DNA of 59,997 bases, the filler included, from Hausera hauseri (taxonomy: Eukaryota): NCBI GenBank assembly GCA_046269625.1. It is 10 parts of 10 records of this genome, joined end to end, with 100 filler letters (N's around TTAATTAATTAA, not from the genome) between each part and the next. Parts side by side here need not be neighbours in the genome. Positions count along the whole stretch, not along the records: positions 6,766 to 12,217 come from JBJURY010252403.1; 9 more parts are not named here. The stretch is one strand, 5' to 3'. The position numbers and the translations under genes are program-made. Positions 3,104-50,508 of the stretch are shown piece by piece; position 1 is the first letter of the stretch; each line of letters opens with the position of its first letter. The notes under the pieces are model-generated. The model did not search any database. It was given only the letters and a program-made list of their open reading frames with translations, and was not told where the DNA came from.

Positions 3104-4084
3104 ATTGACGATCTAGATAGTATACGGGAGCAAAGAAAAAAATTGACTGGTCGACAAGTACACGATTTTAAGAAAAACACCATGTAAAAAAAGAAATTTT
3201 GATACAACCAAATCAAGTCTGATAATATCCGAACCAACTCCAAATAACAATGGTACTATACCAAGCAATTCGATATCATTACATGACGACGACAACTCTG
3301 TCACAAATACTAGTATGCTTATGTATGAAAGTTCTTTCCTTTCACTAACTCCGCCAAAAATAACCATTTCTCCCGATCCCTCCAGGACCCTGTCACCACT
3401 CAAATCGCAAAGTGGAGATGAATCGCCAAACGTACCGACTTTGAAGTTTTCTAGTGAAAATCCCAAAGAAAGAAGAGTTTTGAACTCAATTTGCGAACTT
3501 AACTCTTTTGGTTTTATTTATGTTTGTCAATGCTGGTCCAATTATTATTTGGTACAGATGTAGTTGTAGATCATTTCTCAATATTCTTTCAACACTTCAT
3601 CTTGATATATCAAATTCGGTAGTCATTGTTCTGTCCTTTTTGATGTTTACTAAGTAAAAAAAAATTGTTTTAATCAGTTTTTTGATATGTACAAGATTGT
3701 ATAAGAATTGAATAAATTGATTTTAATGATCTTTCGGTTGACATTTTATTTGGGATTTAATCTACTATTTCTCTTGTTATAGTTTTTTGAGCTATTATTT
3801 TTGGAATTTCCATATATCTATACCGCATATATATTAGTCAGATCAAATACTACAACAAAATGGTGTCAGAAATTCTAGAAATTCAACATATTGACATATT
3901 CAAAGTTTACAAAATGCCTATAAAAAATTTTGTAACAAAGATTCCCTGAAACTATGATGAATTTCGATAATTTATAAGGGAGATATGCAATCTCATCGAT
4001 TTTAGATTTTGTAAAAACAAAGATGGCAGTCCATTTTGCTTCCTAACGGTCAGTCAAGACGATCAAATTAAATGTGCGGAAGAT

Positions 4085-5728
4085 TTGATTAATTTAATCA
4101 CAGGAAAGATGCTTGGTGGTGTAACGTTGCGTCCACGCGTTCTGGTCGATAAAGTGGTTGGCAATTCAAATTATATCGTTTTTCCTGAATCTGAAACTGT
4201 CGATGATATTGTCAACACAACTCATTTCGAAAAGGGGTTTTATTTCGTCCAATTGTACACGGAACGTGGTTTGAATAATAATGTGGCGTTGTTTCTCAGC
4301 GATTTGTATCGGGATTATGAATTGAAACGGTTGCCATCGTTGACTTTTGGTGAAATCGGGACCGATCAATTGTTTGCCACGTTTTATTTCGATGATCAGT
4401 TTCATCGTGTTCGGCTTTTGGATAAATCGGACTCATATCGGGTCAAAGTCATGTTCATCGACTATGGTAACGAAGAATGGGTCACCGTTGATGATATCTA
4501 TCCAATCAGCAATAAGCTCCGGGAAATCCCTCCACTGGCTCACAAATGCACCATTGACGGGGTCGTTATCGTTGATCCGGAGCGTCACCAAATTGCGCCA
4601 ACAGACGTTCTCCACAAAAACATGAAAGCCAGTCTGGTAAATGAATACGATGCGCAGCTGAAATCCGATCGTGTTGTAGCATTGGATTACACAGATTTCG
4701 CGTCGATCAGCTATCGGAAATATCTTGTCGGCGAAGGAATTGCCGTGCCGATACGATGCGAGAAAGTGACGAATAGCGCGGCTGTTGAACAAATTTCGAC
4801 ATTTCCCGATGAACTCGTCAATGGACATTCGTCGCCTCAATGCAGAGCAGTAATTATGCACATGGAAAGTCTGACCGAATTCTATTTGCAACCGGATTTC
4901 GTTAGTAATAAGGCGAATTTGGATAAGGTATGTCAGTTGATTGATTCGGTAATGGAACATGACAGAATCCATTTGGAATATTCCCGTACAGATATTCGTT
5001 ATTTAAGTCAATTCACGGAAGATTGCAATTGGTATCGTTGCGAGGTTGTCAAGGACAGATTCAGAAATGCTTACTGCATTGTGCGGTACATCGATTATGG
5101 GAATAGTGAACAGAAGACTGAGTTGTCTAGTCTGAAACCGCTGACAAAGGAATGGAATGCGGATGCTGATGCATTGGAAAAAATTGCGCCGTGTGCTGTC
5201 AGACGTAAATTTCACGATGGGATGATGAGTCAGTTGCATGAACGTGTTGTGAACACTGCGGCATCTGATGGAAAAGTTGAGGAGTCTATGCAGTACCGAC
5301 TGACAAATATCGAGTCATCAGAACAACTTCGGTTCCGTTTGGTAGACACACAGGATGAATCACGGAAATCGCGGCTGACTGCTATTGCCGAATGGATTGA
5401 ACACGGTAGTCAGGGTGAAGGGCAAGTTTTGGCATTAGCGAAAGATGAATTGTACGGTGCTACGGTGGTCGATGGTCAACAGCAAATGCGGTGTCGTATG
5501 ATGTGCCGCAATATAAACAAAGTTGTCGTGTAAGATATCGACACCGGTGTCTACCATATTGTCCCGCTGAAATCCCTTTTTTATCTGCCTGACGATATTT
5601 TTAAGATCGCCCTATTGGCATTCCACGAGAGATTGGTGCTAAAGAACATCCGTGTGTCGAAGAGAGGCCGAATTGAGAATGGAGAAGTTGCTATCAATAA
5701 AAGATGCCCGTCTATTGTGGTGCGGTGA
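4085..5728 (+). CDS. Intronless multi-Tudor-domain protein (extended Tudor, TDRD-like); in-frame TAA at 5531-5533 interrupts a third degenerate Tudor domain
   Basis: Tudor 1: FDDQFHRVRLL...VKVMFIDYGNEEWV...LREIPPLAHKC. Tudor 2: FTEDCNWYRCEV...VRYIDYGNSE. After the stop: *DIDTGVYHIVPLKSLFYLPDDIFKIALLA. Confidence 0.85.
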
Positions 5729-6765: not shown

Positions 6766-7120
6766 TCAGGCATTGGTAGGGCAACAACTCATCTGGTGAA
6801 ATAGTCAATAAAGACTAAAATATATTTGTTTCCGTTCCGTGTTAACGGTAATGGGCCCGTTATATCCATTGCGGTAAATTCGAATTGCGCTGCAGGCTTG
6901 TCCCATACCTTTAATGGTGCTTTAAACATTGATCCTGTGTTTTCCGGGTAGCACACAACTTGCAGCTCTCGCACCATTCTTGTACATTTTTCGTTATCGT
7001 TGACCAAAAGTATTTTTGTTTTAATTTGTTTAGTGTCTTATTGGCCTATTGATGTCAACTAAGTAATCCATTATGATACTGAGTCAGTAAAACTGCTCTA
7101 TTTTTCTTAGGAATTACTAA
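6766..7120 (-). pseudogene. Element A integrase N-terminal part
   Basis: HHCC region YHNGLLS*H...KYFWS...WCESCKLC, then AMDITGPLPLTRNGNKYILVFIDYFTR. Confidence 0.92.
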
Positions 7121-7369
7121 CGCAGGTCCGTTTTGACTAACAAAATATAGAAATCCTTCTTTTTCCTCGTAAGCTTCGCTGAATCGAGCCAGGTGACGGG
7201 TTAGCTCTCTGTCAGCTGGTATGATTTTGTCTTCTATGTACTTTCTAATGGCCCTTATTTCTGCATCCTCATTTTGATTTGCCTTAATTTTCTCGACTGA
7301 TCCATCTATACCCCATACGGCTGCGACTACTGCCTTTGTTTCTGATTTATCGGGTATTCTCGATAAGTA

Positions 7370-8600
7370 GTCGGCGTTGGCATTTCGCGATCCCGGCTTA
7401 TATTGGAAATTTAATGTATATGGTTGTAACTTTAGAGCACATCATAGTAGTTTGCTGTTTGGATTTTCATGCTGCTTTAGTCATTGGAGCGGTCTTTGAT
7501 CCGTATAGATCAAGCGCGGTTTATTTTCGCTAATATACGGTGAAAATACTTCTAAGACAAATATCATTGCTAATAGCTCTTTTTCTATTACAGTGTATTT
7601 CTTTTGATGCTTATTAAGTTTTCGTGACACATAGGCTACTGGGTGTTCCTTTCCATCTTTACCCTTCTGTGATAATACGGCTTCTAATCCATAATTATAT
7701 GCGTCTGTTGCCAAAATAAATGGTTTGGTCATGTCTGGATAGATTAATATAGGAGCCGTTAATAATCTGTCTTTTAGATATTCGAAACCTTTTTGACATT
7801 CGCTTGTCCAGATAACTTTATCTAAATCTTCACGTAATAATTCATACAAAAGTTTCGCAATTTTTCTAAAATCCTTTATGAATCTTCGGTAATAGTTTGC
7901 TAAACCTAGAAATTGACGTAATTCTCTAACTGTACTTGGCTTGGGAAAATCTCGTATTTTTCCCAAGAGCTTATCCTGAGGTTTTACACCATTCCTATCT
8001 ACTTTATGTCCGAGGAAATCTACATCTGCTTGAGCAAATGAACACTTCTTGGGATTTATCTTTAGACCCATTATTTCGCATCTATCAAAGAGATCCTGTA
8101 GATCCTTTAAATGTTGTTGAAAATCCGTTGATGCTATTATTACGTCATCTATATATACCATGGCATGTGGAGCATCCAACAGTAAGAGTTCTGTTCCTCT
8201 TTGAAATGTGGGTGGTCCATTCTTTAATCCAAATGGCATCCTGTTAAATTCCCACAATCCTTCTCCGATCGAGAAAGCTGTCTTCGGTTTATCCTCCTCT
8301 TTAACCTCCACTTGCCAATAACCCTTTTGTAGATCGATGGTTGTGAATATGGTCGATCCGTGTAATTTGTCTAGTATCTCGTCAATTCTTGGTAGAATAT
8401 ATGTATCCGTCTCTGTTATTTCATTCAAGGCTCTATAGTCTATACAAAATCTCATAGTACCGTATTTCTTTTTAACCATCACTACGGGCGCTGTCCATGG
8501 GGAACAACTTGTTCGAATTATCTTATTTTCTCTCATCTCTTTTATTACTTTACGAGCTTCCTGTTTCTTATCATATGCTAACCGATACGGTCTTTTCTTA
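7370..8600 (-). pseudogene. pol: Element A reverse transcriptase and RNase H
   Basis: SPWTAPVVMVKKK, RFCIDYRALN, DLQKGYWQV, MPFGLKNGPPTFQR, YIDD, FILATDA, EKELLA. Confidence 0.97.
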
Positions 8601-9218
8601 ATTGGCTTGCCTTGCCGTCCTTCAACTTAATGACATGCTGTATTACTTTCATTGTGCCTAGATCATAGTCAGTTTGTGCAAATCGACTAGCATTCTTTTC
8701 TAATAATTCGATTAACATCTCCTTCTCTTCCTTACTTACAATTTTGCATTTTTAACCTCTCGTTCCAATCAATATTCGTGGTTTTATTTCCTTTGTCTTC
8801 GTCTGGTTTCGTTTTCAGTTTTTTTGTAATCATCTTTTCTATTTTATCTACGTCCGATATTACTGAGCAGGTTTCTTCTTTTATTATTTCTTCAGTTATT
8901 GTTACTTTTTCCAAACTAGTATCCTTCCGTAATCGTTTTTCTTTATTTGTTGTATTACAAATTCGTAAGTGGATTTTTCCATCTCTTACCTTATCTACAT
9001 GAGGGGCGATTAACACTTCGTATTTTTCCATGACTTGCGGGAATGGTTTAAAATAAATTATTTCCGTCAACGTTTGACTCTATTTTTGGGATTATTATCT
9101 CAGATCTTGGTGGGATTATAACGTCTTTTATTAGTGAGACTATTCCTTCGTTATGATCTTCGTTGAATATCTTAAGTTGACATGTTCTTATATCTATATA
9201 AGCATTTTCCAATTGATT

Positions 9219-9857
9219 TCATAGATCACATCCGATTAAAATTTCATTGGTTAGATTATCTGCTATTCTAATGGTATGTTTCAAAATTTGTTCACCAATC
9301 TTAATTTTGGCATCTAATACCATCTTGATTTCTTCTTCTGTACCAAATTCTCGAACATTTACTAATGTAGTAGTTGGTCTTCGTAACTTTCTTTTCAACT
9401 CCTTTGGTAATTGATTTCTTCCCATTATCGTGGTTGTGGATTTTGTATCTAGTAAAGCCATCATTGGATATCCATTCACCTCTATTTCTATTTCTGATCT
9501 TATGGGTGATTGTTGATCATTTTTATCATCAACAGTGTACGTAGTTTCATGTTTATAAGGGGTTAAGTTTTTATCAAAATTTTGTTTCATCTGCTGAACT
9601 TGTTGTGTAGGGTATAATTCTGCATTTACTACATATCGTGGAGCTGAAGGATTTATTAACTGTTGTTCATTATACAACTGTCCATGATATTCATCCGCAG
9701 GATCTAGACGGGGTAAATCCGTTATTAACTTCTGTCTATACTTCGATTTCCGTGTCTTTAGTACCAATTGTTTGATACTGGGTACTCGTTTCTTTGCTTT
9801 CATCTGAGTATATTCAGCATCATCATCATCAGTTATATTATACGGGGATTCTTTCAT
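9219..9857 (-). pseudogene. Element A linker plus aspartic protease
   Basis: IEVNGYPMMALLDTKSTTTIM (DTG-like motif, G>K) ... ILIGCDL. Confidence 0.8.
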
Positions 9858-9884
9858 GTCTTTTCTCTGTAGTATCTTTTTCTT

Positions 9885-11570
9885 CTATCGTGCATCATGG
9901 CTTGCTAAGAAACAACTTGCCACTGCCGGGATTACCGTTATTAGAATTTTCCATGAGCATCCCACTGCTGCATGTATCCCGTATGCTTTACCAAGTGCCG
10001 TAAATACTGTCCGTATGGCGCTAATAATAAAGTATATAGCTAGAAAGCCGAAGCTGCTTGTCCGAAATATAGGAGCTTACCCCACATCTTTTCCACAACG
10101 TTTTTTGTTACCTTCCTTAGGTAATCCATACCCATAAGATTTTCCCATTGTGGTGATCCTTCGCCATCCCACATTACTCTCTGTGTTAGTTCAGTTATTA
10201 CTCGTTGTTTTTGCTGTGGAAACAACAACATACGTCCATAGTCCTCTAAATTTTGTTGTGTGTAAATTCCTCCCTGCGATATTCCTGTTTATGGTTCGAA
10301 TTTTTGATTCCTTTACAGATTAATCAAACTTAACATCTCTGATTTGGGCACTGGTTCTCTTTTGGGCATTCTAATCAATTTTTTGTTATCGATCTTAAAC
10401 ATGGGCGACATATTAAAGGTACAATTGTATAATGGGGTAGGTTTCACAATAATATCTAATAATATTCTAGTTACTGGCATCACATATCTCGGTTTCTTAC
10501 GGTAAATCACAGGTAACTCCATTTTTCATTCTTCTGTTGGTCTAACTGATACTTCTACCTTTGGCATTCTATTGTTATCAATACCTCGCCCATCATTCTG
10601 CCAATGATTCCGTCACCAAAGGTCATTACAGGTGCTACCATATCCGGATTTGTTATTACTAATGCCATTTGATTGCGCATTATTTCGTAATTCAGCTTGC
10701 ATTTATTCATTATTATTTCTCGATATAATCCTCTGATTTCTTTCCTTACATAATTGATTAAAAAATCAATCTTATTGTCGAAATATTTTGTCAACTTTAT
10801 ATCTTCCTTATCTATTTTGGTTTTTATAGCCGGTATTTCTTTTCTCGATAAAAAGATGTTCTTATAGTTAGTTTTTGATATTTCCTCATTGCATTTAGTT
10901 GCTAGTCCCGTGATTTTGAATCGCATCATCTCTTCCGGATTTTCCGAATATACAATTGTAGCTACTTCTGTCATCTTGACTTCCTTTGTTCCTTCTTTAT
11001 ATGTCGCTGTCTCTTTTTCTGCCGTTTTTCCTACTGTCTTGTTAAACTTTCCTTCCTTTAATAGCGTTAACTGACATTTACTGGCAGTGGTTTCCCATGT
11101 CATTTTCGATTCTCCAGTATCACATTCACTATTATCATATTCGCATTCGTTCATAGTCGTCATCAATTTTATCTGTGAATCGAATAATACTTCGTATTCC
11201 TTCAACTGAATCTGGTAATCCTCAATGGCTACCGTTCTCGGTGCAATAGTGCCTCCTACATCGTAATCCACTCCTTTACAGGTGCCTTCTATTGTTTTAT
11301 CTACTCTTCCAGCTCTAAATATTCCGGTATATTTTATTCGATTTCGAACTGCCAGTATATGTTCGTTTTGTATTGTTATGATACCAATCTTAAAGGCATC
11401 TTGGCATTCCGATCGTGATATAATGATTGGTTCGAAAGGTGTCGTGGGCTCGATTATGGCTGTGTTTCCCGAATAATAGGCACAATTAAACAAGAAAAAT
11501 GATCTTTCTACGTAACACTCCCTGACTTTTGCTTTTACGAATTCAGACTTTCTACCATATAAATACTACT
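9885..11570 (-). pseudogene. Element A chuvirus-like envelope glycoprotein with C-terminal transmembrane region
   Basis: ECYVERSFFLFNCAYYSG, GTCKGVDY, LYREIIMNKCKLNYEIMRNQMALVITNPD, GEVLITIEC, ELPVIY...PVTRIL, GIYTQQNLEDYGRMLLFP, KMWGKLLYFGQAASAF(fs)LAIYFIISAIRTVF...VGCSWKIL. These motifs are collinear with those I recognise in chuvirus-type glycoproteins. Confidence 0.85.
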
Positions 11571-12217
11571 TTCCTTTAGTATTTGTTGTTGTCTTTTATA
11601 CTCCTTTAGTTCTATTTCTAATTGCTTCCTTGTGCGTGGTGATAACGTATCGTTTGTATAGTTAACACTTTCCTTCTTTTTGTCTTCTTTCTTGACTTCA
11701 GGTTCGCTAGCACTATCCTCCGTTTCGTATTCCTTACCGGAGGATTTATCTGACGTGGCTGATATATAATCTTTCTTCTGTTGTTTCTTCTTGTTACTTG
11801 ATTTTGAGGACTCTCCTCTTCGTGATCTACATGACTTGGCTATATGTCCATATTTATTACAGTTAAAACATTACAACCTTCCTTCAGGATCTATGTTGGG
11901 TAAGGATCTTCCGTCCTTTTTGGATTTCTTCTTGTAGCATTCCTTTTCCCCATCGTTCCGTAAATTAAATCGGACTTTCTTTTCCACATCTGACTCAGCT
12001 TCAGTGGCTGATGTTTATGAGGGGCTTCTGTTTCTTTCATAACGTTGATATCGTTGAGTACTATTGTTTCTTCTCTTATCATAACCGTTATTATTACGTT
12101 TAGACTTATTCCACCTATACAGTTCCGCATCTCGTTCGCCTTTTCGTGCCTTTCTTATTGCTTCTTGGAACGTAGGCGGGTCTTGCTTGTGAGATTATCG
12201 TCCTTAATCTTTCTTCT
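11537..12217 (-). pseudogene. gag: Element A gag C-terminus with CCHC zinc knuckle
   Basis: Hand translation: DPPTFQEAIRKARKGE (capsid C-terminal helix) ... GRL*CFNCNKYGHIAKSCRSRR (CX2CX4HX4C at about 11829-11870). Confidence 0.85.
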
Positions 12218-16530: not shown

Positions 16531-17429
16531 TTTGAGATGCAGAGTGTTATTGGCATGTGTATTCTCAGTGTTTCCGAAAATGTAAAACAGACAGTGGTTG
16601 GAGTTCAGCATAGAATCTCTTTCATTTTCATACATGGCCATGCGGAGGTCAGGGGAAATGAATGAGCAGACAGACTGACCAGTACTGCAGGCAGCAGAGT
16701 CATGGACTGATCTGATATCATGAATGTCCTCCACGAGACTGGTCGGAAAGAAAATTCTTCAATAAGTCAGAATTTCCTCTCCCTCATGATTGCGTGAACT
16801 TTGAATGGAGCAACGTGGGGCCAGATGCAAGCGGCTCGCTGGCAGCAGCAGAAATTTGATGAATGAAAATAGAATTAGAACTGTTCGATCATTGTCTTTT
16901 GGTTTTGTGGGAATGGACTATAGGGCCCGTGGTCTTGTTCTTAGTGATGAGGATTTGCCGACTAAGTTACAGATTTACTATGCATTTTATCATGTTTCTT
17001 TTTTCAACATTTTCTGTTAGACCTGAGGTATAAGCTTGTTAAAATTATTTCAGTCATTTTAATATTATTTCTTGAACAGAGTGTCAGCCATGTCCCACTG
17101 GTTGGAAGCTGTTCCAGAAAAAGTGCTACTTGTTTTATAATGAAANNNNNNNNNNNNNNNNNNNNNNNNNNNNNNNNNNNNNNNNNNNNTTAATTAATTA
17201 ANNNNNNNNNNNNNNNNNNNNNNNNNNNNNNNNNNNNNNNNNNNNATGCTTTTTTTCTGGGTTATTTTTCGCCCTTATACCACTTTTCCGTATTCCGTAT
17301 GTGTCTCCTAGTGTAGATTCGTCACCCCACCATTGGGCCTGTTTTCTCGGAATGTAAAAACCAATTAGCGATAGTGCTAAAACTATTTGAATGTACGATA
17401 TTGGTGTGACAATTATTGAAGAAGTTTTT

Positions 17430-18500
17430 ATTTTGTGTCGGCATAAATTATAACCTTTATTAGGCCGGATTTCCGTTTTAACAACTCTTTGTACTGACAC
17501 GACTTCTTCTTTTCCGTTTTTGTTGATGTACACCGTAGTTAGTGTGGGCCTCGTAATTTTGTATGACCCTCTGCCGGTACGGATCCATTTTAATGAGGTG
17601 CCCTTCTTGTCTACTAAATAATGTACATAAACCCAATTTCCTGGTTCCAAATCATGAGGTTTCGCTTTCTTATCATATTGCTTTTTAAACTGCTCCTGAT
17701 ATTTCCCAACTCTTTTGTAATCGCGTCTGCAATACTTCTGCAAAATTTTGTTCTAAATCTTCGGGATTGAGCGGGTATGGCGTCATTCCTAAATCTGTGG
17801 GTAACACAGCTTCACGTCTATACATCATGAAAAATGGTGTAAATCCTGTTGTTGGATGTGGGGTGGTATTAATAGCAAATTGAGTTTTATCTAAAAATTC
17901 GTCCAAATTTTTTTGGTCCTTATCTACTACTGTTGATAATATGCGTATGACAGTTGCATTCATTTTTTCAACCATTCCATTACACTGAGGGTGATATGTG
18001 GTAGTTGTTAACCGTTCAATTTCAAATATCTTTGTGATCTTCTCAAATAGTTCACTTGTAAAATTTCTTCCTCGATCTGTCAATATTTGAACTGAAGGCC
18101 CGTATTGGAAAGTAATTCTTACTCCAGCTTCTGCTGAAGTTTTTGCCTTTTGATCATTATCGCTATTAATTCGACAAAATGAGTTAATCGATCAATACAA
18201 TTTAGGATATACTTATTGTTTTTGTGGGTCGTAGGAAGAAGTCCTACGATATCCATCGACATGGCTTGCATAGGCCTATCGGCCACATTAATTGGTTTTA
18301 GTTCAGCTATATAATTTTTCATTTTCTTTTGTTTAGTTGCACAAACTTCACGAGCTTTTACACAATTCTTTACATCGATATAGATACTGGGCCAAAAGTA
18401 TTTATTCAATATTCTTTCTAATGTTTTCTTCCAGGACATGTGGCACGCTAAATATGAATCATGTTTCGACATTAGCACTTTGGTTCGTAGACCCTTTGGA
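17430..18500 (-). pseudogene. Element B integrase (HHCC, DDE core, GPY/F-like module)
   Basis: KHDSYLACH...KYFWP, SMDIVG, TDRGRNF, YHPQCNGMVE, TTGFTPF, KKQYDKK...GNWVYV...GSYKI. Confidence 0.95.
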
Positions 18501-18789
18501 ATAACTATCAGTTTCCTTCCTTTTCGTTCGTAATATAAAATATCCTCATTGCTATTGTCACTTAAGATGCAGTATTTATGTCCATGTCTGTGTAAATTTT
18601 TCTTCAATTGTCGTCCCTTTGGTATGATATCCTTCTTAGCAAATTCTATAATCTGCTGAATAACTTTATCCTTTCTTTGTTTTGTGCAGATTTTAATTGC
18701 TTTATCCATCGTTAAGGCTCGTTGGCGATCTATTATTTCTTCAAGTTGACTTTTCTTCATAACCGTGATTGCGCTTGTTTTGGTCTTTA

Positions 18790-20096
18790 AACTTGATAGT
18801 GCATCAGCATCTACATGTTTATTTCCTGGTTTATACTGGAATTCGATATCGAATCTAGAGATTTCTTCGATCCATCTGTTAAGTCTGCATTTCGGGTTAT
18901 GTGCTCCGTCATTTAGGTCATGACGGCTTTGTGATTAGTGACAATAATAATTTTCTGCCCATATACGTAAACGTTGAAGTATCGAAGTGCTTCTTTTACG
19001 TCTAGAGTTTCTAATTCGGTTACGGAATAATTTTTCTCGGCCTTCTTCAAGGAACGTTCTCCATAAGCAATTGGGTGTTCTAGTTCTTCATCTTCCCTTT
19101 TCTGCGCTAATTCATATCAAATGCCTTCTTTACTGGCGTCTGTCTTGATTATAAAAGGTAAGTTAAAGTCTGGGTACCGTAAAACAGGTTTGCTTGTTAA
19201 TATCTTCTTCATGTTGTCGAAGGCTTTTTGTTCGACATCAGTCCGTTTCCATTTTATTCCCTTTTTAAGTAGACGATATAAGGGTGCATTAACTTTTAAA
19301 TTATCTGGCACATAGGAGGCAAAATATCCTCAGAGTCCTAGCCAGTTCTTTAACTCTTTTTGGTTTTGTGGTTCCATGCAATTTGGTATTTTGTTTAATA
19401 ACGATTTATCTGGTCTCAATCCTCCTTCTCCAACTATATGGCCAAGGTAGGATAGTGCGTTTTGAGCCCATTTGCATTTTTTGGATTTAATTTCAATCCG
19501 GCCTGCTCCAGTCTCATTAATGTGTGTTGAATCTCCTTTAAATGTTCCTCTTCTGTCTTTGACGCTATCATTACGTCGTCTACATATGCAATGGCACGGT
19601 CCAGTCCCATTAGCATCTTATTCATTATTTTTGTAAAAATGGCTGGCTTAGTAGTGATACCGAACGGCGTGACGTTAAATTCATACACGCCATCGTGTGT
19701 TTTAAATGCCGTTTTATATCGATCCTCATCCGCTATCTCTAATTGACAATATCCAGATTGTAAGCCCAGAGTATTGAACCATTTTTCTCCCAAAAGTCTG
19801 TGCAAAGCCTCCTTTACTGATGGTAAGGGAAAGGAATCCTTCATTATAAGGTTATTTAATGGTCTGTAGTCAATACATATTCGATGTTTTGTAGTACCTT
19901 TCTTTTTAACCATGAGGATCGGTGAATACCAGGATCTGTAACTGGGTTTAATTATATCGGCCTTAAGCATCCGTTTGACTTCCTTTGTTATCTCTGCTTT
20001 CAGTGACTGTGGCGGGGCATACAATTTCGGTATCTTTTGATATTTAAGATCTATTTCTTCATTTGAACCGGGCTTTTTCTTAAGTGGAATAGTCAA
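18790..20096 (-). pseudogene. pol: Element B reverse transcriptase and RNase H
   Basis: SPILMVKKK, RICIDYRPLN, KTAFKT, YVDD, PFIIKTDASKEGI. Confidence 0.95.
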
Positions 20097-20619
20097 TCTT
20101 AATGCTTTAGCCCGACCGATATCCTCGTCGTCTTTAGCGATAACTGATTTTTAAATGCACAACAGTTCATAAAATCGACAGTAAGATTCAGGAGAAAATT
20201 TATTTTCTACATGAGGTGGAAATTGGGCATACTTCTAAGGCTTTTCTTCAATAGTTTTCGACGACACTCTATAGGTATCTCCTAGAGTAGTATAAGCATA
20301 AAGCTTTACGGGTTCCGTACGTTATTTGCTATCCTAATTGGTATACGACCGAAGTGTACTCTTGTCAGTACGTTACTGAGCGTTATATTTGGATTTAATG
20401 TCTCCTTTGGTTCAAAATATACCGGTTGATCGTTATATTGTTGAACTTGAGCATAGATTGTTGTCTCTATTCTTGGTGGAATCTAGTGGTATCCACACTT
20501 CTCCAAACTTCCTATCTTTAGAGTTCCTTATACCTTTATTTTGTCTAATTTCTATTAATTTTTCAGTATGCAAGTCGATTGCTATAATTGGTAACCTTTT
20601 CAGTAGATCACACCCTAAA

Positions 20620-20937
20620 ACTGTCGTCGGTTAGTTGTTCAATAACTGCAAATTCATGACAGAAAAACTGTCCAACTACTTGAACTTATGAATTCCATTT
20701 AAATATGGGTTTGGACATTTGACCAAAAGCTCCTGTACTTCCGGGATCTTTTGTAGACGGTGGGTATAATTGTCTGCTGAGCGTTTGAGGTATTGAATCA
20801 TTTTTAATGTAAGACATATAAGACCCTGTATCGATTAATGCATAAACTTCCCAATCTTTAATAACGATTTTGGCGAAAGGTCTTCCTTCTATTGCTGTTC
20901 CAAAACAGTTTGATGCTATTTTTGGGCGTTTAGTCAA
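20620..20937 (-). pseudogene. Element B aspartic protease
   Basis: RPFAKIVIKDWEVYALIDTGSYMSYI ... VLGCDLL. Confidence 0.9.
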
Positions 20938-21561
20938 CGATATTTCATGTCCATTAATTGGAATCTATGGAGAAGATACTATGTTCTCAGCCAATTGCTT
21001 TACTTCTCCGTTTGGGTATAATTCATTGTTTTCAATGTTTAATTCTTCAGCTTCATGAGTACTGGTTAATGGTTCTCGGTTGTTAGTGTGCGGTTCTATG
21101 TTCCATAAAATTCTTAACATTGAATTTTCCCAGACAGGCGACTTAGTCTCTATATTACAAGGTTCACTCTGGGAGTAAAACATCCTGGGATCATCCCCGG
21201 ACTGTCGGTAACACATTTTCCGTAAGACTCCATAACGTTTTGTTCCATCATAAGGGTTTTCGACATTAATTGTCCTTTTAAAGATTTCCGTCTAATAGGA
21301 ACTCATTGATTGTTTGTCACAGTCTTCATAGACTGGAGCGGTAGAAGATAACATAGGCAATAGTGCTTTAATGACAGAGTACGTCTTGTGTCTGTTTATT
21401 CTTGAAAGTACTTCTCCTCCCTTAGGATCGTCATCATTTGAATCATTTCTTCGCATACTAGGTCTTGTAAATTTCCGCTTGTACAAGAGCATAGGCCTTC
21501 CTTGTCGTTTACGATTATAATAACCGACATCGCGTTCTATGGCCGATTTCCATCTATTTTC

Positions 21562-23392
21562 CTAGTATGCTTTTAAAAACTTTCCAAAGGGCGTTATGAT
21601 TGCAGTCAGTATTTTACATAAAAATCCGGTGAATGTAAATATTTCATACCCATATATTACTGCTTGGATGACTGCTGTAATCATTTATATCAGAAAATAT
21701 ATTGCTAAGAATCTGGATGCGGCTTGACCAAAAATCAAAAATCTTCCCCAAATTTTGTAAAGTATTTATGTGGTTACTCGTTGATAATGGTTTAGGCCAA
21801 GTAAGGATTCCCATTTAGCCTGATATCATGTATCGTCTACTACTGAGGCCATGGCTCGGTTTAATTAGTGTGTTCGTTGCCGCGGAAAAGCGAGGAAATG
21901 TCTGGAGGCTTCGATTTCCTTAGGCCTGTATATGCCTTTCGACGAGGTATCTCGGAATTTGTCATCCGTAATTACTTTCACAAGATTTGTTCCCGTTAAT
22001 TTAATTGGGGAGGTAGTAATAACTCCATTTGTCAAACTAACCCAGTCTGTTTCACTACGTCTAAACATGGGTTCCCCTAAGCTTGCCTTACAATCTTTTA
22101 GAATGGTTGGTTGGGTTGCATTATCCAATAACACTCTCGTCAGCGGTGTAGCTAACTTGGGAGTATTCTGATAAATAACATAAAGTTTTTGAATTGCAAC
22201 GTTTTTCTTCTATGTTTATGGGTACATCCCTCTTTTCACATTCGTAAGTTAATAGTACTTCACCCGTGACCCGACTGAAAATTCCTTCTCTCATAGGGAT
22301 TATTGGAGAAGCCAACTCTGGGTTGGCGTATATAAAGGCCAATTTTGTCCTCATAATCTCGGTATCTAATTTACAGTAATTCGTTATTATTTTGTGATAT
22401 AATTACATTATTCCGACTTGTCTTTTGTAATAAAAATAATGATATCTGTTCTTGAAGTAATCCTCAACTCGGATATCCTGTGTTTCCAACTTATAGGTCT
22501 TCACACTTATCTCGGTTTCGGCGATAAAGAATGCTTCATAGTTAGTAGTGAACATTACTACGTCACAACGGGAAATCATCTCCTTTTTAATAAATTTCAG
22601 TCTATGCTGATCCGAGACTAATATAATGGATGTAGGGTGTTCCGATACGTCTTCGAGTGTCCTTGAGTTTGTATTCGATTTATCCACATATCGCTTTTCG
22701 GTAGTTTCAGTTTCTTAATTTTAATAAAATTACACTTTCTTCAAGAGGGAGGTTCCCATATTATAACAGAACTTCTAAAAGCACAACTTCCGTCTTGTAA
22801 ATGACACTTTTGATTCTCGGTGTATAACTTGGTGACACTATGGAACATTACTTCTGTGATCGCATCTCTGATTCGCAGAAGTTTACGGCCACCACCTTTG
22901 CTTGTAATCCTTTTCCGGTGTCGTATTCCGCCCCGTTACAATGTCCGCTATGCATATCTAACCTTCCGACCACTACTTTGCATGCCCTAATTATTTTTCA
23001 TGGTTGCATTTCTAATTGCATACTGTCCCATTCTATTCTTCCAGTTTCTTGCCCTGTTTGTAGTGCTGGCTTTCAAAGTTCATTGGGATTAGAGAAGTTG
23101 TTGGTTTGATTATTGAGGAATGTCCGTGTACCAACCCGCAGTGAAAAATGCTACAAAATCGTATCAGCATACATTCCATTCCATCTAACGATATTAATTC
23201 TTGTTGTTGGTACACGAAGTAATTTTTCTCTCTTGCTTCCAACTTGTGCGGTATGGCATCTTCGCACACTTCTAAATCTATTAGGAAATATCTTTTCCAT
23301 AGTTTGAACTTATCGCAATCGTAGACAGTAACAGTGCCTATGTGCTTTATTAGCATCATCAAGGTGAGGAGGTTAATTAACCAACTTAATTC
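21562..23392 (-). pseudogene. Element B chuvirus-like envelope glycoprotein, essentially full length, with internal signal peptide
   Basis: WLINLLTLMMLIKHIGT-VTVYDC...LIDLEVC, ECMLIRFCSIFHCG, GHCNGAEY, LYHKIITNYCKLDTEIMRTKLAFIYANPE, GEVLLTYEC, GIYRPKEIEASRHFLAFP, KIWGRFLIFGQAASRFLAIYFLI. Aligns along its length with the element A glycoprotein. Confidence 0.87.
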
Positions 23393-26300
23393 ACTCTTCC
23401 AGTGGCTCGTATCCGTTGTTGTCAAATTATGCAACATATCGTCGAGTGTATTACTATTACTGGTCCGCTTGTCTTTTTCCTTGTCAAATAGTCTTGACCA
23501 AGCTACTTCGCGGGGCAGCTTCCTCGCCACTCTTCGTGCTAAGGTTATAACTCTATTGATTTCATTCTCTCGATTAGGGTTTATTTTGATAGCTAAATAC
23601 AGTAATACTTTCCTTAATACTTTATTCGTGTTTTCTGCAATGATCTTTTCGATTACCGATTCATCGGTTAGGTTACTTTTCGGTAGTTTAAAATGCAAAC
23701 TTCTCATTATTCTAGCTGCATTAAATATGACCTTTTTCTTATCACCTAATGTGTCGCCTCGAAGCTTGAATAATTTACAATTCGTATTAAATTCTTCATT
23801 AACTCGCTTAATTCTTCAGTATCTGTGCTGAAAGTCGGAATTGACATTTGTCTCAATTCTCTAATCAATTCTCCATTATAATGGACTAAATCTCGTGTCT
23901 TCTTAGGCCTACCGACTGGGCGTTTCTGTCTTGGGACATTGGCCATCACTTTACTCAGTGGAACTAAATTCTTGTCGTATTGTTCCTTATCCTCATCCGT
24001 TTGTAAATACTCGAAATACATTGCAGCGTCTCGTACTCCCATGATTTGTCCTACGCATCATTCTGTCTTGGCCTTACGCATGGCTTCTTTTTTAGTTTGC
24101 TCTTTGGCTACTATTGACATTATCCGACTTGTTTCGTCGAGAATAATTCCGACGTCTATTAACTGTCCTAGATCATCTAGTATTCTACCTCTAAAATAGA
24201 ATCTATAGTTTAGCTCGTTTGTTCCGCCATTATTTAATAACCATTCTCTAACGTCCCTTAAATAGGAATATGTAGTTAACTCACATTCTTTTTCGTCCAT
24301 CCACTCGGACGATATCATTACTTTCATCACTACCGCCGGTTTAACCCTTAATATTTTAGCGTATTCCCTGATCAAAAGTTTCGGCACCGTGCTATAAATT
24401 GTGTTCTCACTAGATAATTTAGTTAAGGTCGGAATAAGTTGTCTTAACCTACTTTCTGTAATGTTCACGTTAATTAATTTAATTAAATCTTTTTCAGTTA
24501 GCGCCAAATCCAGGAGCATCTCCACATTGAATCTCCTGTCCTGCGGACACGTTTCTATCTCATTTAATTGCACTGGAGTCACGGGTTTTTCGGCCATTTC
24601 TACCAATAAGTAGGCTACCCATACATTTCATTTATGACTTTTGAGTCTGGATCAATTGCATCCGACAATTTCTTTACGAACTCAGATTCTTGAAAACTGA
24701 GATGTTGGTCATTTCTTATCTTTATCAACTCGGTATGGAAATTTTGATCTGATCCGGCCATCCATTCTTGTGGTTTATGCAAAAATCTTATTACGTCTAT
24801 TAACGTAGCTTGGTCTTCCGGACAAATGTCTAGGGTCTTAATATCTTGAGCCGAGGTCTCATCAATAGGTTTATCTGTTATATGTTGAACTTCTTCTAGT
24901 CGGACATTCCTCAATCTTGGGTAAAATTTGCAAGTCATATTTCGCCTCTCCGTAAAGTTCGTCTCTTCGATCATCTTATAGATCTCTTCCAATAACGTTG
25001 CGTCTTGCTTCTTCTTCTTAAATTAAGTTGTCTTAATACATCAAATCTCGTTCGGATGTCTATTTCTGCTATTATCGTATATAGGTTACGTGCGCTTTCT
25101 TCTAACTGTTTCTTTACAGAGGTCTCGCTTCCTGGAAATTCTTTCTTTCAATCTTCCGCTATTTTGCCTAATCACATTACTAATTCGGACCATTCTGACA
25201 ACTGATTGGCGATTATTGGCTTTGTCGTTATAGCCTTATCTAGCATCTTATATGCATCATTTAACTCGTCATCTGGCCCTTTTATAAAGTTCATAATCCG
25301 GCTGACATAACTAAATTCATCTTTATATTCATCAAATTCTGCGATACAAGCTCTTACTACATATTCAGTTTCTTCGTTGTTTGGAGACAATCCAATTTCT
25401 CAAACTACAAATCTGTGCTCGCTTTTCATTTTCTATTTTGATCCGATTCTCTAGGTTTGTATATTGTTTGGGTACAACAAATGCAATTTTTATCATTTCC
25501 ATTAAAGGAGGAGTATCTATTGCGTCTATACCCAATATTTCTAAATCGACATTACTTCGACTATTAACCGGTTTTTCTCTGAGTCGATTAATCATTGTGC
25601 AACGAATTTCATCCATCGTACGTTCTAAATTCCGGACTACCCTCTTCAGTTTTGGATTTATTCCTAAATTAGCCAAGAGTGTTTTAGCTTTAGCGACTTT
25701 TATATCAATGCTATCTTCGTTTTTGTTCCATCCTTCCGAAAATTCGATTCTGCTTTTACTCCAGGATTCTAATTCATGCTTTCATTTTAACAGTGTTTTA
25801 GGTGATACCTCTTCAGGTTGTCCTAAGTCGATTGCTTCCTCTAGCTTCCCTTCACTGCATAGTTTTAAGCTTTTATATAGCCTCTCAGCAAACTGCTGCT
25901 CTTTCCCGGATATATCTATTTCTTCGCTAATCTGCTTAAGCCTTTCTAGATTTCGCTGTAATATTTCTGGGTCGTGGCATCTAATTTTTATTTTCTTTAG
26001 CTCATCGGCGTTTCTCCATGAACGTTGGACTTTTCACTTTCTTGGGTCAAAATCATCAATATTTACCGTTTCTTCCTCACTAATGGGGAGTGGGCAAACT
26101 TCATTAATTTCATTAATCGATTCTATAGACTCCGCTGTCCCAACAGGCGTGAGTAATCCAATTTTAGGTACATTCAACCTATGGTCCGCGTCGCCTTTTA
26201 CCGCTATGTTCGGACTTTCCGTTTCTTCAGTTTTCTCTCTAGTTATTTGTGAACGTGAACGACTTCTACGTTTCGTCTTAAATGAAGGGCTACTGCCTCT

Positions 26301-26540
26301 ATTTTTCGCAATTTTAAGTATTAATGGTTCCATAAATTCCTTTTCTGCTGTATCGTCCTCAGTGGAATTATCTACTTTTTCGCCCGTGAACTCAGGCTCT
26401 GCATCTAAGTCGACTTCTGTCGAAGTTCCTGTTTAATCAGATATCTTATTACTTGTCGGAACACTCTTTTTTCGTGTCATATCAATTCGCTTGGGTGCTA
26501 TCGCATGCTCATATTCAGTTTCTTGTTCTGCTAAACCATG
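23393..26540 (-). pseudogene. Element B long ORF1 (about 1000 codons, fragmented): basic/SR segment, charged helical region, AT-hook-like motif, gag-like C-terminus
   Basis: Consecutive minus-strand ORFs 26034-26333, 25365-25676, 25172-25390, 24615-24992, 24058-24606, 23746-24042 and 23033-23707. KRPVGRPKK at 23899-23925. Gag identity is inferred from position and a MSIPTFS segment. Confidence 0.55.
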
Positions 26541-26640: not shown

Positions 26641-27133
26641 TAATATCAGATTCCGCATCGGATGAAAGGTCCAATTTTTCACCAATTATAACATGTCCAC
26701 CTAGCCGTAGACGTTTTTAATATACATTGACTTATTAAAAACCCCATACCTGAGAATCAGCTATAGATTTAAACTACATTTCCATGGGATTTCGATGCAC
26801 TAGTTTCATATGGTAGTTTGAAAAATAAGCATAAACCGAGAAATTTTGTCGCGAATAATTTCGAAGAGTATATGGGTTATTGTGTTGGATTGTCCGCAAA
26901 CGACGTGAAATAGGTTACGTTTCTTGTCGGGTAAAGTAAATACCACTGTTCTGATGTATTGTCATTGGTGAAAATGTAAATGTGAATTACGTCAGAGCCA
27001 CTTCCCAACCCCCGTGGCGTAAATCGACCGGTTGGTCCAAGTGCATGGCAAACTATTTAGCGGTATTGTCATTGTCGTCATGTTATGATAATGATCTGTT
27101 ACTATCAAGTACCAAGTAAATGTTGCTGCTCAT
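26641..27133 (-). pseudogene. Maverick/Polinton minor capsid (penton-like) protein N-terminus, absent from the ORF track
   Basis: MSSNIYLVLDSNRS...DNTAK*FAMHLDQPVDLRHGGWEVALT*F matches the pattern FYxxLPSNxS...NTxxxFxxxLxxPxxLxGxWEVxL. Its ATG overlaps the integrase TGA (ATGA). Confidence 0.75.
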
Positions 27134-28148
27134 TGAATCTGTGATGCAAAAATGCTACTCGGTGCAGTGTATCCGTGCCACTTGACGAGATATTGTTTAT
27201 TCGAACCTTTTTCACGTGAACGTAGAATTTCCCGAATAAAATATACATAGGGTTTCTCGGGCAGTACCCGCAGTTCCTGTTCGTAGAATATATCGCGTAT
27301 TTCCTCACCGTTTTTTTCCTCTGAAACATACATGACAGGTGTTTGTTTTGTTTTGAATGCCAAAATGCTAAAAACCTCGTCGCTCCAGTTCTGATTGAAA
27401 TTCTTAATGAATGCCGTCGTGCTTATTTTCGAAATACGCACGTAAGCACCGATTTTATATTTTGGACGTTTAATTGCTCGTTGTCGGTTTTGATAAAGCC
27501 TTATGTCCAAATCATCGATAAAGTCAACCGGGCGCATTTCGTTGATTCCACGGTGTGTCGAGTGATTGTATGCATGAATAATATCCGGCAATATATCTAC
27601 CCAGTGTTTTTTGCCCTGCTTCGTAAAGAATCTGTTTAGGCGACCGCACAATGTTCGATTAAATCGTTCAACGAGTACAGTCTTGTATTGGGAAAACATC
27701 GAGTAGTGTATTATGCCTAACCTTTTCAAGACCGCTGCAACATGGGTGTTGTAGAATTCCTTACCCAAATCCGTTTGTAAATGCTTCGGCTGTTGTTGTT
27801 GTTGTTGCATCAGTGTCTGAACAGCGTCGGCAATCTATTTACCGAATTTAGATTTCACAGCAATTGCACGTGCAAAAAAACTAAACACATCAATACATGT
27901 CAGCACGTACCGATACCCATCATTGATGCTGTCGTACGGAATCATTTCCATCAGATCCATTTACCATACGTTATTTACACCAGCAAAACGGTATGCACGA
28001 GTTAGAAACTGCCTTCTTATCGGTTTGTTTAGGCTCTATGCTAATTGTTTTCCGAGCCAACGTTGGGTCTGTTGCGAGTCTGTTTGACAGTCTTTGCCAG
28101 TTTGTCGACGTCAGTATACCTGACGGGATGACGCGGATCGAACCACAT
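27130..28148 (-). pseudogene. Maverick/Polinton retroviral-like integrase with C-terminal chromodomain
   Basis: MWFDPRHP..DVDKL, W*MDLMEM...GYRYVLTCIDVFS, LQTDLGKEF, VERFNRTL, YNHSTHRGI, YKIGAYVRISK, NWSDEVF, FYEQEL, QYLVKWHGY. Confidence 0.93.
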
Positions 28149-32959: not shown

Positions 32960-35900
32960 CAAGACGTTGGGTGCCTTCTACTGATTTTTCCCTGCTATAC
33001 ATACTAAATGTGACTCTGCGTGTTTTGTCTTTATGCCATGTGTTTACTTGCAAAGTTTGAAATTGGGGAAAAAATTATCCGATTTTGTTGTGAATGTTGT
33101 GTCGTGCAAAGACGAGTCAAAATAAAGAGAAGAAGAAGGTGAAGGAGAGAGCGATTGTTTAGGACGGATGGCTAAAGGTATTCAAGAGAGTATTAGAACA
33201 CAAAGGACTGAAAAGAGGTGTAGTGGCGGATGAAGGAGGAGAGACGAAAAATGGCGTAGAAATTGAAAGTGTATTAGGTGAAAGAGTATAAGTAGAAGAT
33301 GAAACAGAGGTAGTAGTAGAGAGATAGATATAGGGATAGAAGTAGAGAGAGGAGAAAGTTGCGAAGCGGAAATGAAAGGAGTAAAAGACGATGTGTGAGG
33401 AGAGAGGGAGAAAGAGAGCGACGAGTATGAGTAAGGTGTGGAAAGAAAAAAAGAGAGAGGAAGTGAGAAGACGGTGAAGAGGGAAAAATGGAAGAGAGCA
33501 AGAAGATGGAGAAGGCGAAGGAAAGTAGTTGGAAGGTGGCATGCAAGAGGTTGGAATGATGAAAGGGGTAGATGGAGAGATTGATGAAGTCAAAGTGGTG
33601 TTTGGCGGAGGAGGTCTTGTAAAAGGAGAAAGCAGGTTGTCACCAGGGGATGAAGGAGGTGTTAAAGGCTTGAGGGTTCAAATTCGGATGGGGAAAAATG
33701 GATGAACAATCAGAAAAAATTGAGGTAGAAGTCTTGGGAGAAAACGTAGGGGAAAGTGGGTTAAAGAATTCAGCAGGGATGGAAGGTGAATTTTTGGATT
33801 GCTGCGCGTTGTGTAAAGTGTTGGTAGAATAGTTGTTTCGATGGGAGACGTATCGTTAATGAAGAAAGCGGGCTAAGCGTTGTTGATTTGGATGGTTACT
33901 TCTTTGTCGTCCTTGAGAATGATGGTGTTGTGAGAGTGTAAAAGAATTACTTTTTAAGGACCAACATACTGAGGTTGAAAACCACACGGCATTTGATTCT
34001 TTAGCCATACGAACTTGGCAATATATAAATCATCGTGTATGTTGGATTTACTTCCGTGTAACAGTCTACAAAATGAGTTTTTGCTGAACTCAATGAAGTG
34101 TCTCTGGGCCGCTTGTATGGTTTCGTCTGTAGGAATATTGTCCAGCTCAGCTAGCTCGAATAATGGTCTGAAAGAAGTACCAAATAATGCTTCTGCAGGG
34201 GAGAAGCTTGTAGAAGTAGATTTTGTGTTCCGCCAGCCAAGCAGAACGTACGGAAGGAGTGTAGTCCAACTGAAATTGGACTTAGCAAGGATTTTGAGAG
34301 ACGTTTACATCGTTCGGTGAAAGCGTTCGAGAAGGCCATTCGATTGAGGATGATATGATGACGTGTGAATGTGGTTAATTCCCAATCGATTGACAAGAGC
34401 TTTAAGCAGGTTGGATTCGAACTGTGGACCTTGGTCAGAAATGATGTGGCGAGGTGATCCAAACCTGCTGATCCAAGTGCGGATGACAACGCCTGCAATG
34501 GTTTCTGTGTTAGTGCTCCGAAGCGGAACGGTCCGTCATTGTGAGGATGAACTGATGGCCGTTGCCTAAAGGTAATGGGCCTACAACATCAATGTAGACA
34601 GATTCGAAACGAGACGTGCAGGGAAAATGAAAGAGTGGTGGCTTTAAGTGCTTAGTAACTTTGTATTTTGGCATGACACCCACGGCCTAACCCATGCCTG
34701 CACGTCAGAGCGCATCGACGGCCATACTACTTGGCGTTGTAAAAGTCAAACCGTGGCCTTGGCACCAGGATGATGCAACGCATGCACGCTGTTGAATGCT
34801 TCTTTTTGAAGCGATTCAGAAAGAATGATTTTGGGATTATTAGGTTTATAGGTATCAAAGGCCACATAATCGATGGTTTTTCACGATTTAGAAGACTTAA
34901 AGATGTCAGGAGGTGGCTGATTTTGCTGAAGTTTGGATTGAGGAAAAAATGGTGTAAACTCAATCGAGCTGACCGATCGGGATAAGAAGTCAGCTACTAA
35001 ATTGTAGACTCCGTTTAGGTGCTTAATTTCAAAATTAAATGTGGACAAATACTATATTTGCCTCTCCTGACGTGGAGAAGACGATTTCATGGTGAGAATT
35101 TGAAGCAAGGGCTTGATGTCCATTTGTATTGTAAAAGTTCGTGCAGTTTGCAGATGTTTACAGTGTTTTACGGCAAGGATCGTTGCAAGCAACTTTCGGT
35201 CAAAGGTGAAATATATTTGCTCCTGTGCTGTGAATTTTCGAGGAAAGAATTCCAATGGCTCATGGGATCCATTTTTCACTTGATGGAGGACAGCACCTGC
35301 AGCTGTTGTGGATGCGTCCGTGGTTAAGAAGAGTTCTGCTTGGGAGTCTCGATAAGCCAGGATATCTACAGTTTTCAAGTTGTCTTTGAGACGATAGAAA
35401 GTATTGACTAGATTGGCGGTCCATTGAATAGGCTGTTTCTTCTTGCCGGAGCTCAGTGATGCAAATGGAGCGGTTAGAGCAGAGCAATGTTGAACGTACT
35501 TATGAATAAAGTGCAATGTTCCGAGGAAGGAACGCATCTCTGTTGATGTACGTGGTAGCTGTATGTTTTTGAGCTGTGTGATGCGGTCTGGCTGAGGTGA
35601 GTGTCCGGAAGAGCTAATAACATATCCTAGGAAGTTGATCTTATGTCGAAAAAAAAGCATTTGGAGAAATTGATTTGCAAGTTGTTTTGGTGCAGGTGTT
35701 GAAAGATCAAATGTAGGTGTTCGAAGTGCTGCTTCGAGGAAGATGATTCAATTAGGATATCATCGATATAGGGATAGGCGAAGTCTAAGCCTGATAGCAC
35801 TGTATCGACATGCCTTTGGAAAGTCTGAGAAGCGCTGAGGAGTCCAAAGTGCATATACAGATATTCGAAAGGCCGAAAGGTGTAATGACAGCCGTTTTGG

Positions 35901-37030
35901 GAACGTATGCAGGTGCCACCGGAATTTGGTGGTATGCATCATGTAGATCATTGCAGGAAATGATGGTCGAACCATGGAGCCTGTGAAGGATGTCGTTGAT
36001 TAATGGTAGAGGGTAAGCATCCATTGTTGTTGTGGTGTTAAGTTGGCGGTAATGGCCGCATGGGTGAAAGGTGCCATCCTTTTTTTGGAACCACATGCAA
36101 TGGTGAAGGGATTTGGATCTTCTGATTATGCCTGATTTTTCAATGTCGAGAAACTCAGCGTCCACTTCCTGTCTACGTCGAGGCGATAGCGGGCGGATCT
36201 TTTGCCGGATTGGTCGTTGATGTGCAGTTACTATGTGATGTAAGGTGGATTGAGGTGATACAAATGATTTGTCCTTTTGCAACAGACTCGAGCAGGAGGA
36301 CGAAATGTATTGTTGTAAATCAGAAGGCAAAGATGACAAATTATCCAATGGAGTCGATGCATCATGACTGGATGCAGTTGAGGTATGAGTTATAGACGCG
36401 GTGTTGTGACTTGGTGGTATTTGGTGCAGGATGTTCGTGTTGAAGATGGTGTTGGCAGTTGTGCTATGAGTAATACGTGCCAAGCAGTTAGTAATATCGC
36501 ATTTGTTACCGAAATAAAAATTTCTATATAATAAATGATTATAAAAATAATTCAAAACGGTAGTCGATTTCTTTAGTATTGACTTACTGGACGCGATCGC
36601 CGGGGTGGTCATTGAAATTCTGCTGATTTGATTAAGATTATCTCCGCTTTTTAAGGACCATTGTTTGCAATCTACAAGTAAATTTTAGTGGGACAGAAAG
36701 TCTGAACCCAATATAGGTGTGCGTACATTGGCTATTGTAAATTTCCATGTGAATATGTTTGTGAAGTGTGGGAGGGTGAATGTTAATGTGGTAACTCCAA
36801 AGATTGGTAAAGGTTCACCGGAAGCAGTGAAAAGTTGCTTTTGTGAAGTGTAATTGTGTTGTATGTGTATGTGTTGTGTTGGTGGCAGCAGAGAGATAAG
36901 AAAGTTTATTTTTTGTTTTGTTGGAGTGATGACTGCTGCTTCCAACGTGAAAACAGCAAAGGAAATGTGTCGGCTGTGTTTTTGCAGGTTGTTGCCTTTG
37001 CTAGGACTTGCCGTGTGTCCTAGCGGAGAA
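32960..37030 (-). pseudogene. pol: Element C pol (PR-RT-RH-IN plus Ser/Pro-rich tail)
   Basis: ORFs 36685-36945, 35785-36612, 35627-35854, 35052-35660, 34727-34963 and 33159-33593, plus a hand-translated integrase core at about 33850-34650. Confidence 0.92.
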
Positions 37031-37041
37031 ATCAGTTTTTT
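36968..37041 (-). promoter_or_regulatory. -1 ribosomal frameshift signal (A AAA AAC plus stem-loop or pseudoknot) between gag and pol of element C
   Basis: ccA AAA AAC tga in the gag frame, then a 10-nt spacer and a perfect 8-bp stem GCTAGGAC/GTCCTAGC. The -1 frame is open into the protease ORF 36685-36945. Confidence 0.85.
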
Positions 37042-47140: not shown

Positions 47141-47264
47141 AACTTTATTTCACACAACTCAAATATTCTTATGAAAATGGAGAAAAATAGTAAACAGGTG
47201 CCTGGTTCTGAAGAATACAAAAAAATAGAACCAGCACTGCAAAAATATTTTGATTTTAATGAAG

Positions 47265-50436: not shown

Positions 50437-50508
50437 GAATGAACCGCCCAGAACCTGAACCCAGCAGGTAGAATTTTTTTCCCCTCCTCCCTTCCCACCA
50501 CCACCGTC

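Follow-up and report, generated by a model that had tools for sequence, protein, structure and literature searches.

Element A is a retroelement that occupies the whole of contig JBJURY010252403.1 (positions 6766..12217, 5.45 kb, read on the minus strand) in a 59,997-nucleotide stretch of Hausera hauseri DNA, here called the window. We consider it very probable that element A, now dead and internally deleted, is one of many copies of a Ty3/gypsy element with the order gag, envelope, protease (PR), reverse transcriptase (RT), RNase H (RH) and integrase (IN), the envelope being a gB/chuvirus-like glycoprotein (G) carried within the polyprotein. The window consists of ten contigs joined via N-spacers, and a second envelope-bearing element, B, lies on a separate contig (17246..26540); since A and B are on different contigs joined in this way, their proximity in the window is an artefact without meaning.

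Layout and decay of element A

Pfam profiles place on the minus strand of element A, in this order, a gag end with one CCHC knuckle, G, PR, RT, RH and IN. The parts are listed below; P-numbers denote unnamed database proteins.

11548..12217, minus strand: 3' end of gag, with the capsid C-terminal helix, the CCHC knuckle (11870-11829; PF00098) and a charged linker
11544..11556, minus strand: putative deletion junction, at which gag linker and G core meet out of frame (from breaks in sibling records)
10051..11547, minus strand: remnant of a predicted class III (gB/chuvirus-like) G ectodomain (PF24664, AlphaFold, Foldseek)
9516..10070, minus strand: membrane anchor region of G, tail and linker (hydropathy, stop map, PF24664 positions 547-634)
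9216..9515, minus strand: aspartic protease (PF00077, E 8e-6)
8615..9215, minus strand: PR-RT linker of ~200 codons with three frame breaks (aligns with P0006 and P0008)
7400..8614, minus strand: RT and RH (PF00078, PF17917, PF17919)
6766..7399, minus strand: damaged integrase zinc finger and start of the integrase core (PF17921, E 6e-16; tblastn with P0006/P0008)

The gag end had been proposed in the original prediction from two quoted motifs, both of which are present on the minus strand, DPPTFQEAIRKAR at 12182 and CFNCNKYGHIAKSC at 11870. The CCHC knuckle matches PF00098 above the cut-off (E 9e-5), and gag aligns with P0001 (32% across 114 aa, E 8e-10); this part of the element is clipped by the contig end and contains 2 stops and a single frame break near 12183. 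The distance of about 250 nt given earlier between gag and G is near the measured values, the knuckle starting 323 nt and ending ~280 nt ahead of the G core. The G ectodomain begins with 330 open codons and has frame breaks near 10560 and 10050 and 3 stops. Its quoted motifs GTCKGVDY (11286) and LYREIIMNKCKLNYEIMR (10728) were recovered; “WGKLLYFGQAASAFLAIYF”, quoted alongside them, is not one contiguous read, its pieces lying in two frames that had been stitched over a frame break. In the anchor region, two hydrophobic stretches start at 10070 and 9977. This region ends near 9920 and PR begins at 9515, which places env less than 2 kb from pol; the anchor and PR share one frame, with a single stop at 9887 between them, and tblastn with P0006, P0008 and P0003 runs colinearly from G via the anchor into PR.

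The protease, RT, RNase H and integrase zinc finger announced for the region behind the glycoprotein were all found by Pfam. The catalytic D-T-G of PR is altered in element A and kept as DTG in its relatives, the PR-RT linker has no Pfam match, RT retains YIDD and falls in a 381-codon open stretch (7481-8626), and IN is clipped by the contig end. Mapped with natural relatives, the coding path contains 12 stops and ~8 frame breaks. No long repeat was found in contig 6766..12217.

The match of the glycoprotein to PF24664 (Monjiviricetes type) is divided by frame into three pieces (E 3e-28, 2e-25 and 3e-5) that cover profile positions 63-634 of 653. The AlphaFold model of the open 330-codon stretch (pLDDT 78) consists of long strands and a 48-residue helix. 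Foldseek against viral models ranks glycoproteins of chu-like viruses first (E 5e-17, TM 0.63), and against the PDB the top match is herpesvirus gB (E 1e-5), with low global TM-scores to gB (0.27-0.38). Ten cysteines are invariant among 12 aligned G sequences; the atlas matches for G, all below 0.9, serve as leads only. Judged by its profile match and modelled fold, the G of element A belongs to the class III fusogens termed HSV/gB-type ENV.

Relatives and the ancestry shared with element B

A full HMMER search with G among 1.84 billion representatives gave 235 matches, the best of which are long unnamed polyproteins. A word-index search for G among longer proteins returned none (0/1399 candidates), a blank that we attribute to the tool since HMMER found 235 matches. 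PR and/or RT stand behind G in 10 of the 18 scanned G-match polyproteins and ahead of it in none (0/18). The order of element A recurs in P0001, P0039, P0287, P0008, P0006 and P0151; P0287, P0285 and P0151 likewise have the envelope ahead of protease/RT, and P0287 holds capsid, CCHC, G, PR, RT, RH and IN in a single 3735-aa frame. P0001 is the closest over the G core (46% to element A) and has a gag end in common with it, and P0039 is 74-83% identical to the G of element A. The relatives differ from element A in the distance from knuckle to G core, which is 283-982 residues in six of them versus 108 codons in A, and several carry 2-7 protease copies. A hydrophobic stretch lies at most 30 aa ahead of the YDC motif in 8 of 11 relatives, as it also does in element B.

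Some relatives carry further features. The region from envelope to RT holds 2-7 protease-like domains in tandem in P0151, P0007, P0006 and P0004, of which P0151 has ankyrin and C2H2 motifs in addition, and long post-integrase extensions with further hydrophobic segments occur in P0006, P0008, P0013 and element B (17246-17500, minus strand). In the database, the intact envelope-before-protease polyprotein P0008 (HBK71150.1) belongs to a Flavobacteriaceae metagenome-assembled genome, into whose bin animal DNA has probably strayed.

17246..26540, minus strand: element B, with spacer, hydrophobic segment (23380), YDC (23323), G, PR, RT, RH and IN

The motifs cited for element B were located at 22946, 22402 and 21750; its contig has no CCHC and no gag Pfam match. 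No nucleotide match was found between elements A and B, and their protein identity is 21% for PR, 30-31% for G, 31% for IN, 35% for RH and 42% for RT. The per-domain protein alignment called for in the original prediction shows similarity well beyond chance in 6 of the 6 domains compared (z 9-32; 200 shuffles each). On their sequences, A and B are separate families. Their glycoproteins, as had been claimed, align yet diverge, with 30-31% identity above that of shuffles, which supports an old, diversified lineage. The description of element A as “independent” holds in the sense of a family separate from B (21-42% per domain) and is not supported in the sense of a second glycoprotein capture.

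The RT+RH trees were built on 42 rows and rerun on 18, with the remaining RT matches left out, and none of the trees includes the flatworm, bryozoan and nematode elements from the literature. The 8 top RT matches of element A (58-65%) are envelope-before-protease polyproteins or pol open reading frames (ORFs) of the same clade, all others being at 55% or less; the search with the RT of element B gave 10 matches, none nearer than P0168/P0008 at 50%. Unrelated RT clades for A and B, which would have told against the old, diversified family proposed earlier, were not recovered: the 42-row tree unites A, B, all six sampled envelope-before-protease polyproteins with an RT and three pol ORFs in one clade (95/93; 92/97 in the 18-row rerun), one of the three ORFs clustering with P0287 at 90%. 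Within this clade, B branches earlier than A (B excluded at 95/90). In the G tree, A and B fall in a 19-row clade that holds all 11 of the G-then-PR proteins (91/91), with stand-alone glycoproteins outside it, and here they are weak sisters (85/80). The check for congruence between G and RT found no significant conflict, as an RT tree constrained to join A with B does not fit significantly worse (p-AU 0.186).

Given the shared RT clade, the grouping of both glycoproteins with those of such polyproteins and the absence of significant incongruence, we do not regard A and B as separate captures; the sequences suggest that they received their envelope from a common ancestor that had the gag-envelope-pol order. 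It is unlikely, though the best placed of the alternatives, that the two glycoproteins were captured separately, or swapped, at the same gag-protease site. Such a history would fit PMC13524379, according to which the GAG-ENV-POL layout occurs in several POL clades and its bearers are not monophyletic in POL trees, a result on which our smaller sample does not bear; the sister relation of A and B for G (85/80) and not for RT (95/90) could also reflect envelope exchange within a host. Against this stand the constrained tree just described, the gathering of all sampled elements of this layout in one RT clade, and the position of both glycoproteins closer to polyprotein Gs than to stand-alone G proteins. 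The single RT clade for the sampled layout bears on how often the gag-env-pol order arose.

Family copies, selection and the deletion at the gag-G junction

Family A is present in two public sequencing runs, in which 23,429 and 2,990 contigs align and 30 of 30 bins are covered. These sibling contigs mostly show 80-95% likeness to element A, and the family consists of many divergent copies, the contig counts not being a copy number. No RNA dataset was found among the listed holders of the family. The variable-site lists contain the best-supported rows only and are therefore a non-random sample. In G, 14 of 16 variable sites within the family are at third codon positions (p 1e-5), and for gag, read in its own frame as far as 11577, the corresponding count is 13 of 22 (p 0.012). 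Near-fixed differences that set this copy apart are distributed in another way, 32 of 38 being at first or second positions (two low-share differences of 40 were dropped), and 6 of the 12 stops of element A fall on listed near-fixed differences (p ~1e-7). The contrast between the third-position bias and the copy's own differences indicates that the family held G and gag under selection and that this copy decayed afterwards.

The signal peptide and YDC start of G had been reported as missing, and no hydrophobic stretch is found ahead of G in any of the three minus frames of element A. The loss had been placed at 11570-11610, which proved incorrect: 4 of 16 listed sibling records cross 11600, 2 of 16 cross 11590, and neither an insertion nor a joint is listed there. 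None of the 16 crosses 11548. Four listed records end at 11529-11544 and carry unaligned tails of 31-156 letters toward gag; the tails of two others, which end at 11546 and 11556, point toward G and have 11 and 81 letters. A loose end at 11549 is present in each run. Sibling contigs have additional sequence at this break, and we accordingly locate the deletion at ~11544-11556. It is probably private to this copy or to a minor lineage. Its size, taken from the signal segment and G start of relatives, would be at least ~60 codons and perhaps several hundred. It would have taken the signal/anchor segment and the YDC start of G, along with any spacer domains; short likeness between both ends may have favoured it. 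A programmed -1 frameshift from gag to G was considered and rejected, as no slippery heptamer was seen by eye and sibling records break at this place. Sibling contigs with loose ends also occur at 11628-11643 and 9891, which mark further small differences between the copy and the family.

A less probable alternative than separate capture, and one that we consider quite unlikely, is that the short gag-G junction marks a subfamily without the signal anchor that still multiplies intracellularly or is copied in trans, G being a signal-less remnant carried in the -1 frame. With respect to gag, G does occupy the -1 frame, its 330 leading codons are open, weak G-frame similarity reaches up to 11586, and depth dips equal to that at 11543-11555 are found elsewhere in element A. 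These points are countered by the records just described, none of 16 crossing 11548 and six ending there with 11-156 unaligned letters, by the loose end that each run shows at 11549, and by sites 11577-11604, whose variation follows the third positions of gag and not those of the G frame. If it were true, we would be looking at a GAG-ENV-POL lineage caught shedding its infectious route, with signal anchor and spacer lost together.

That the contig is an assembly chimera, or that a viral glycoprotein happened to insert into a plain gypsy element, is very improbable: the window is pieced together from short contigs, a high-copy family may yield mosaic contigs and the element is not spanned by any single listed record, but the same order exists in natural single-frame proteins, the tblastn matches are colinear from G through the anchor to PR, sibling records overlap over 9399-9943, RT and G of element A share their nearest kin in the same polyproteins, and the read-mapping evidence for a chimera foreseen in the original prediction did not appear, sibling contigs overlapping across all domains (30/30 bins). 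A mosaic of sibling copies would leave the conclusion on the layout unchanged.

Under our preferred reading of element A as a dead, deleted copy, working members of the family would make one long polyprotein with the fusion protein in mid-chain. Hydropathy and general knowledge of membrane insertion suggest that the hydrophobic segment just ahead of YDC acts as an internal signal anchor, in which case Gag would remain cytosolic while the G ectodomain passes into the endoplasmic reticulum, and a signal peptidase cut before YDC would release the N-terminus of G. The anchor behind the ectodomain would bring the chain back to the cytosol, where the protease could excise RT and IN. By analogy with Drosophila errantiviruses, trimeric G may let particles enter further cells. 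The deletion at ~11548 would have taken the signal anchor and shifted the frame; with both effects, element A is expected to make neither envelope nor Pol, and it would have decayed neutrally from then on. The broken copy is a poor vehicle for studying how a polyprotein with a mid-chain membrane protein is processed.

Several observations weigh against this reading or the ancestry proposed with it. In element A, the stop at 9887 separates G from PR in their shared frame; no long terminal repeat (LTR), primer site or intact family-A copy was seen, the contig ending within gag and IN. At the junction, 16 of 927 aligned sibling records are listed, and bridging ones could be among the others; the weak G-frame similarity to 11586 extends beyond the inferred break. 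A and B each have two hydrophobic stretches after the ectodomain, which leaves the number of membrane passes unsettled. As for the trees, A and B are sisters for G and not for RT, the RT sample was picked by likeness to element A, the branch of B is long (2.04 in the first, quick RT tree), and the bootstraps of the 42-row RT tree and of the G tree had not settled.

Published GAG-ENV-POL elements and other features of the window

The novelty implied for the layout in the original prediction is not supported: the order is unusual, but a description dates from 2019 (PMC6431247) and a survey from 2026 (PMC13524379). In the survey (Chary and Hayashi, eLife 2026), GAG-ENV-POL errantiviruses with HSV/gB-type ENV are reported from Platyhelminthes, Bryozoa and Nematoda, with 55 such elements (9 flatworm, 10 bryozoan and 36 nematode), three free-living species as the flatworm hosts, and a cell entry mechanism stated as unknown (PMC13524379). 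Element A shares with them the Ty3/gypsy pol, the gB-type envelope between gag and pol and the multi-copy state, and the A-B identity for G (30-31%) is within the in-group range of ~18-32% given there. The published elements are intact and often LTR-flanked, whereas element A is broken, deleted and clipped by contig ends; intact reading frames, which are a filter of the catalogue and not a trait of the lineage, are absent from A with its 12 stops (PMC13524379). By order, fold and RT, A appears to be a dead member of the GAG-ENV-POL gB-type lineage.

Planarians carry the giant gypsy-like elements Burro/GYPSM1 (Arkhipova and Yushenova 2019, PMC6431247). That paper describes an ORF of 4,900-5,100 aa in over 25 kb, with a CCHC gag, an in-frame env with matches to mononegavirus fusion glycoproteins, PR, a PR-RT insert, RT, RH and IN, and with MATH, BIR, BCL2-like, ankyrin and other domains (PMC6431247). 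On this description, the order gag, env, PR, PR-RT insert, RT, RH, IN is common to Burro and element A. Burro has two or three knuckles versus one in A, and accessory domains where A has nothing between gag and G, such domains having been deleted or never present; the PR-RT linker of A, conserved in its relatives and without a Pfam match, stands at the position of a dUTPase-like region in Burro (PMC6431247). As to the frame of env, the G anchor and PR of A are in frame (one stop) and the gag-G frame is cut by the deletion; the relatives are single-frame. Element A is not shown to be a Burro. It adds a divergent, very high-copy family, and B a second, to the envelope-bearing retroelements already described. 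Sacco et al. (2022, J Gen Virol), cited in PMC13524379, reportedly dealt with non-canonical nematode endogenous retroviruses, among them a metavirus with a captured RNA-virus glycoprotein ahead of pol. Our literature search on deleted GAG-ENV-POL copies found no report.

In element B, a helical module (23441-23815, minus strand) lies just ahead of the signal segment and is common to P0001, P0002, P0003 and P0287; its profile matches P0287, which is outside the profile, at E 6e-13, and has no match in the six frames of element A, where that part is deleted. The module stands at the place of the BCL2-like motif of Burro (PMC6431247), and in the relatives it ends in W/Y-x-x-x-x-GGW; Bcl-2 likeness is weak in B and in the relatives. 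The B spacer has no Pfam Bcl-2 match, and P0002 stays below the cut-off (0.00096). A PDB profile search with the spacer lists BOK at E 0.47, after two designed coiled coils, and the spacer model has a low pLDDT (48), with a best Z of 6.1 to unrelated helical proteins.

Elsewhere in the window, three decayed gypsy-type elements of another clade lie at 33900-37750 (minus strand), 42577-44950 (plus) and 58877-59790 (plus), with a DUF7041 gag match at 58877. An integrase core and a chromodomain with weak Pfam matches are found at 27133-27834 (minus strand), an integrase that we take to resemble those of Polinton/Maverick elements. A Cytochrome P450 (579-2036, minus strand) has one in-frame stop and is intronless over 485 codons, and a long Tudor-domain ORF (3971-5530, plus strand) is on the same contig; both could be captured or processed host genes. 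Positions 45866-51107 hold a fragment resembling a long interspersed nuclear element and a GC-rich 30-nt tandem repeat; the region presumably looks like fish DNA, which would mean that the assembly mixes organisms. A GPS motif at 55990-56772 (minus strand) marks a gene resembling adhesion G-protein-coupled receptors.

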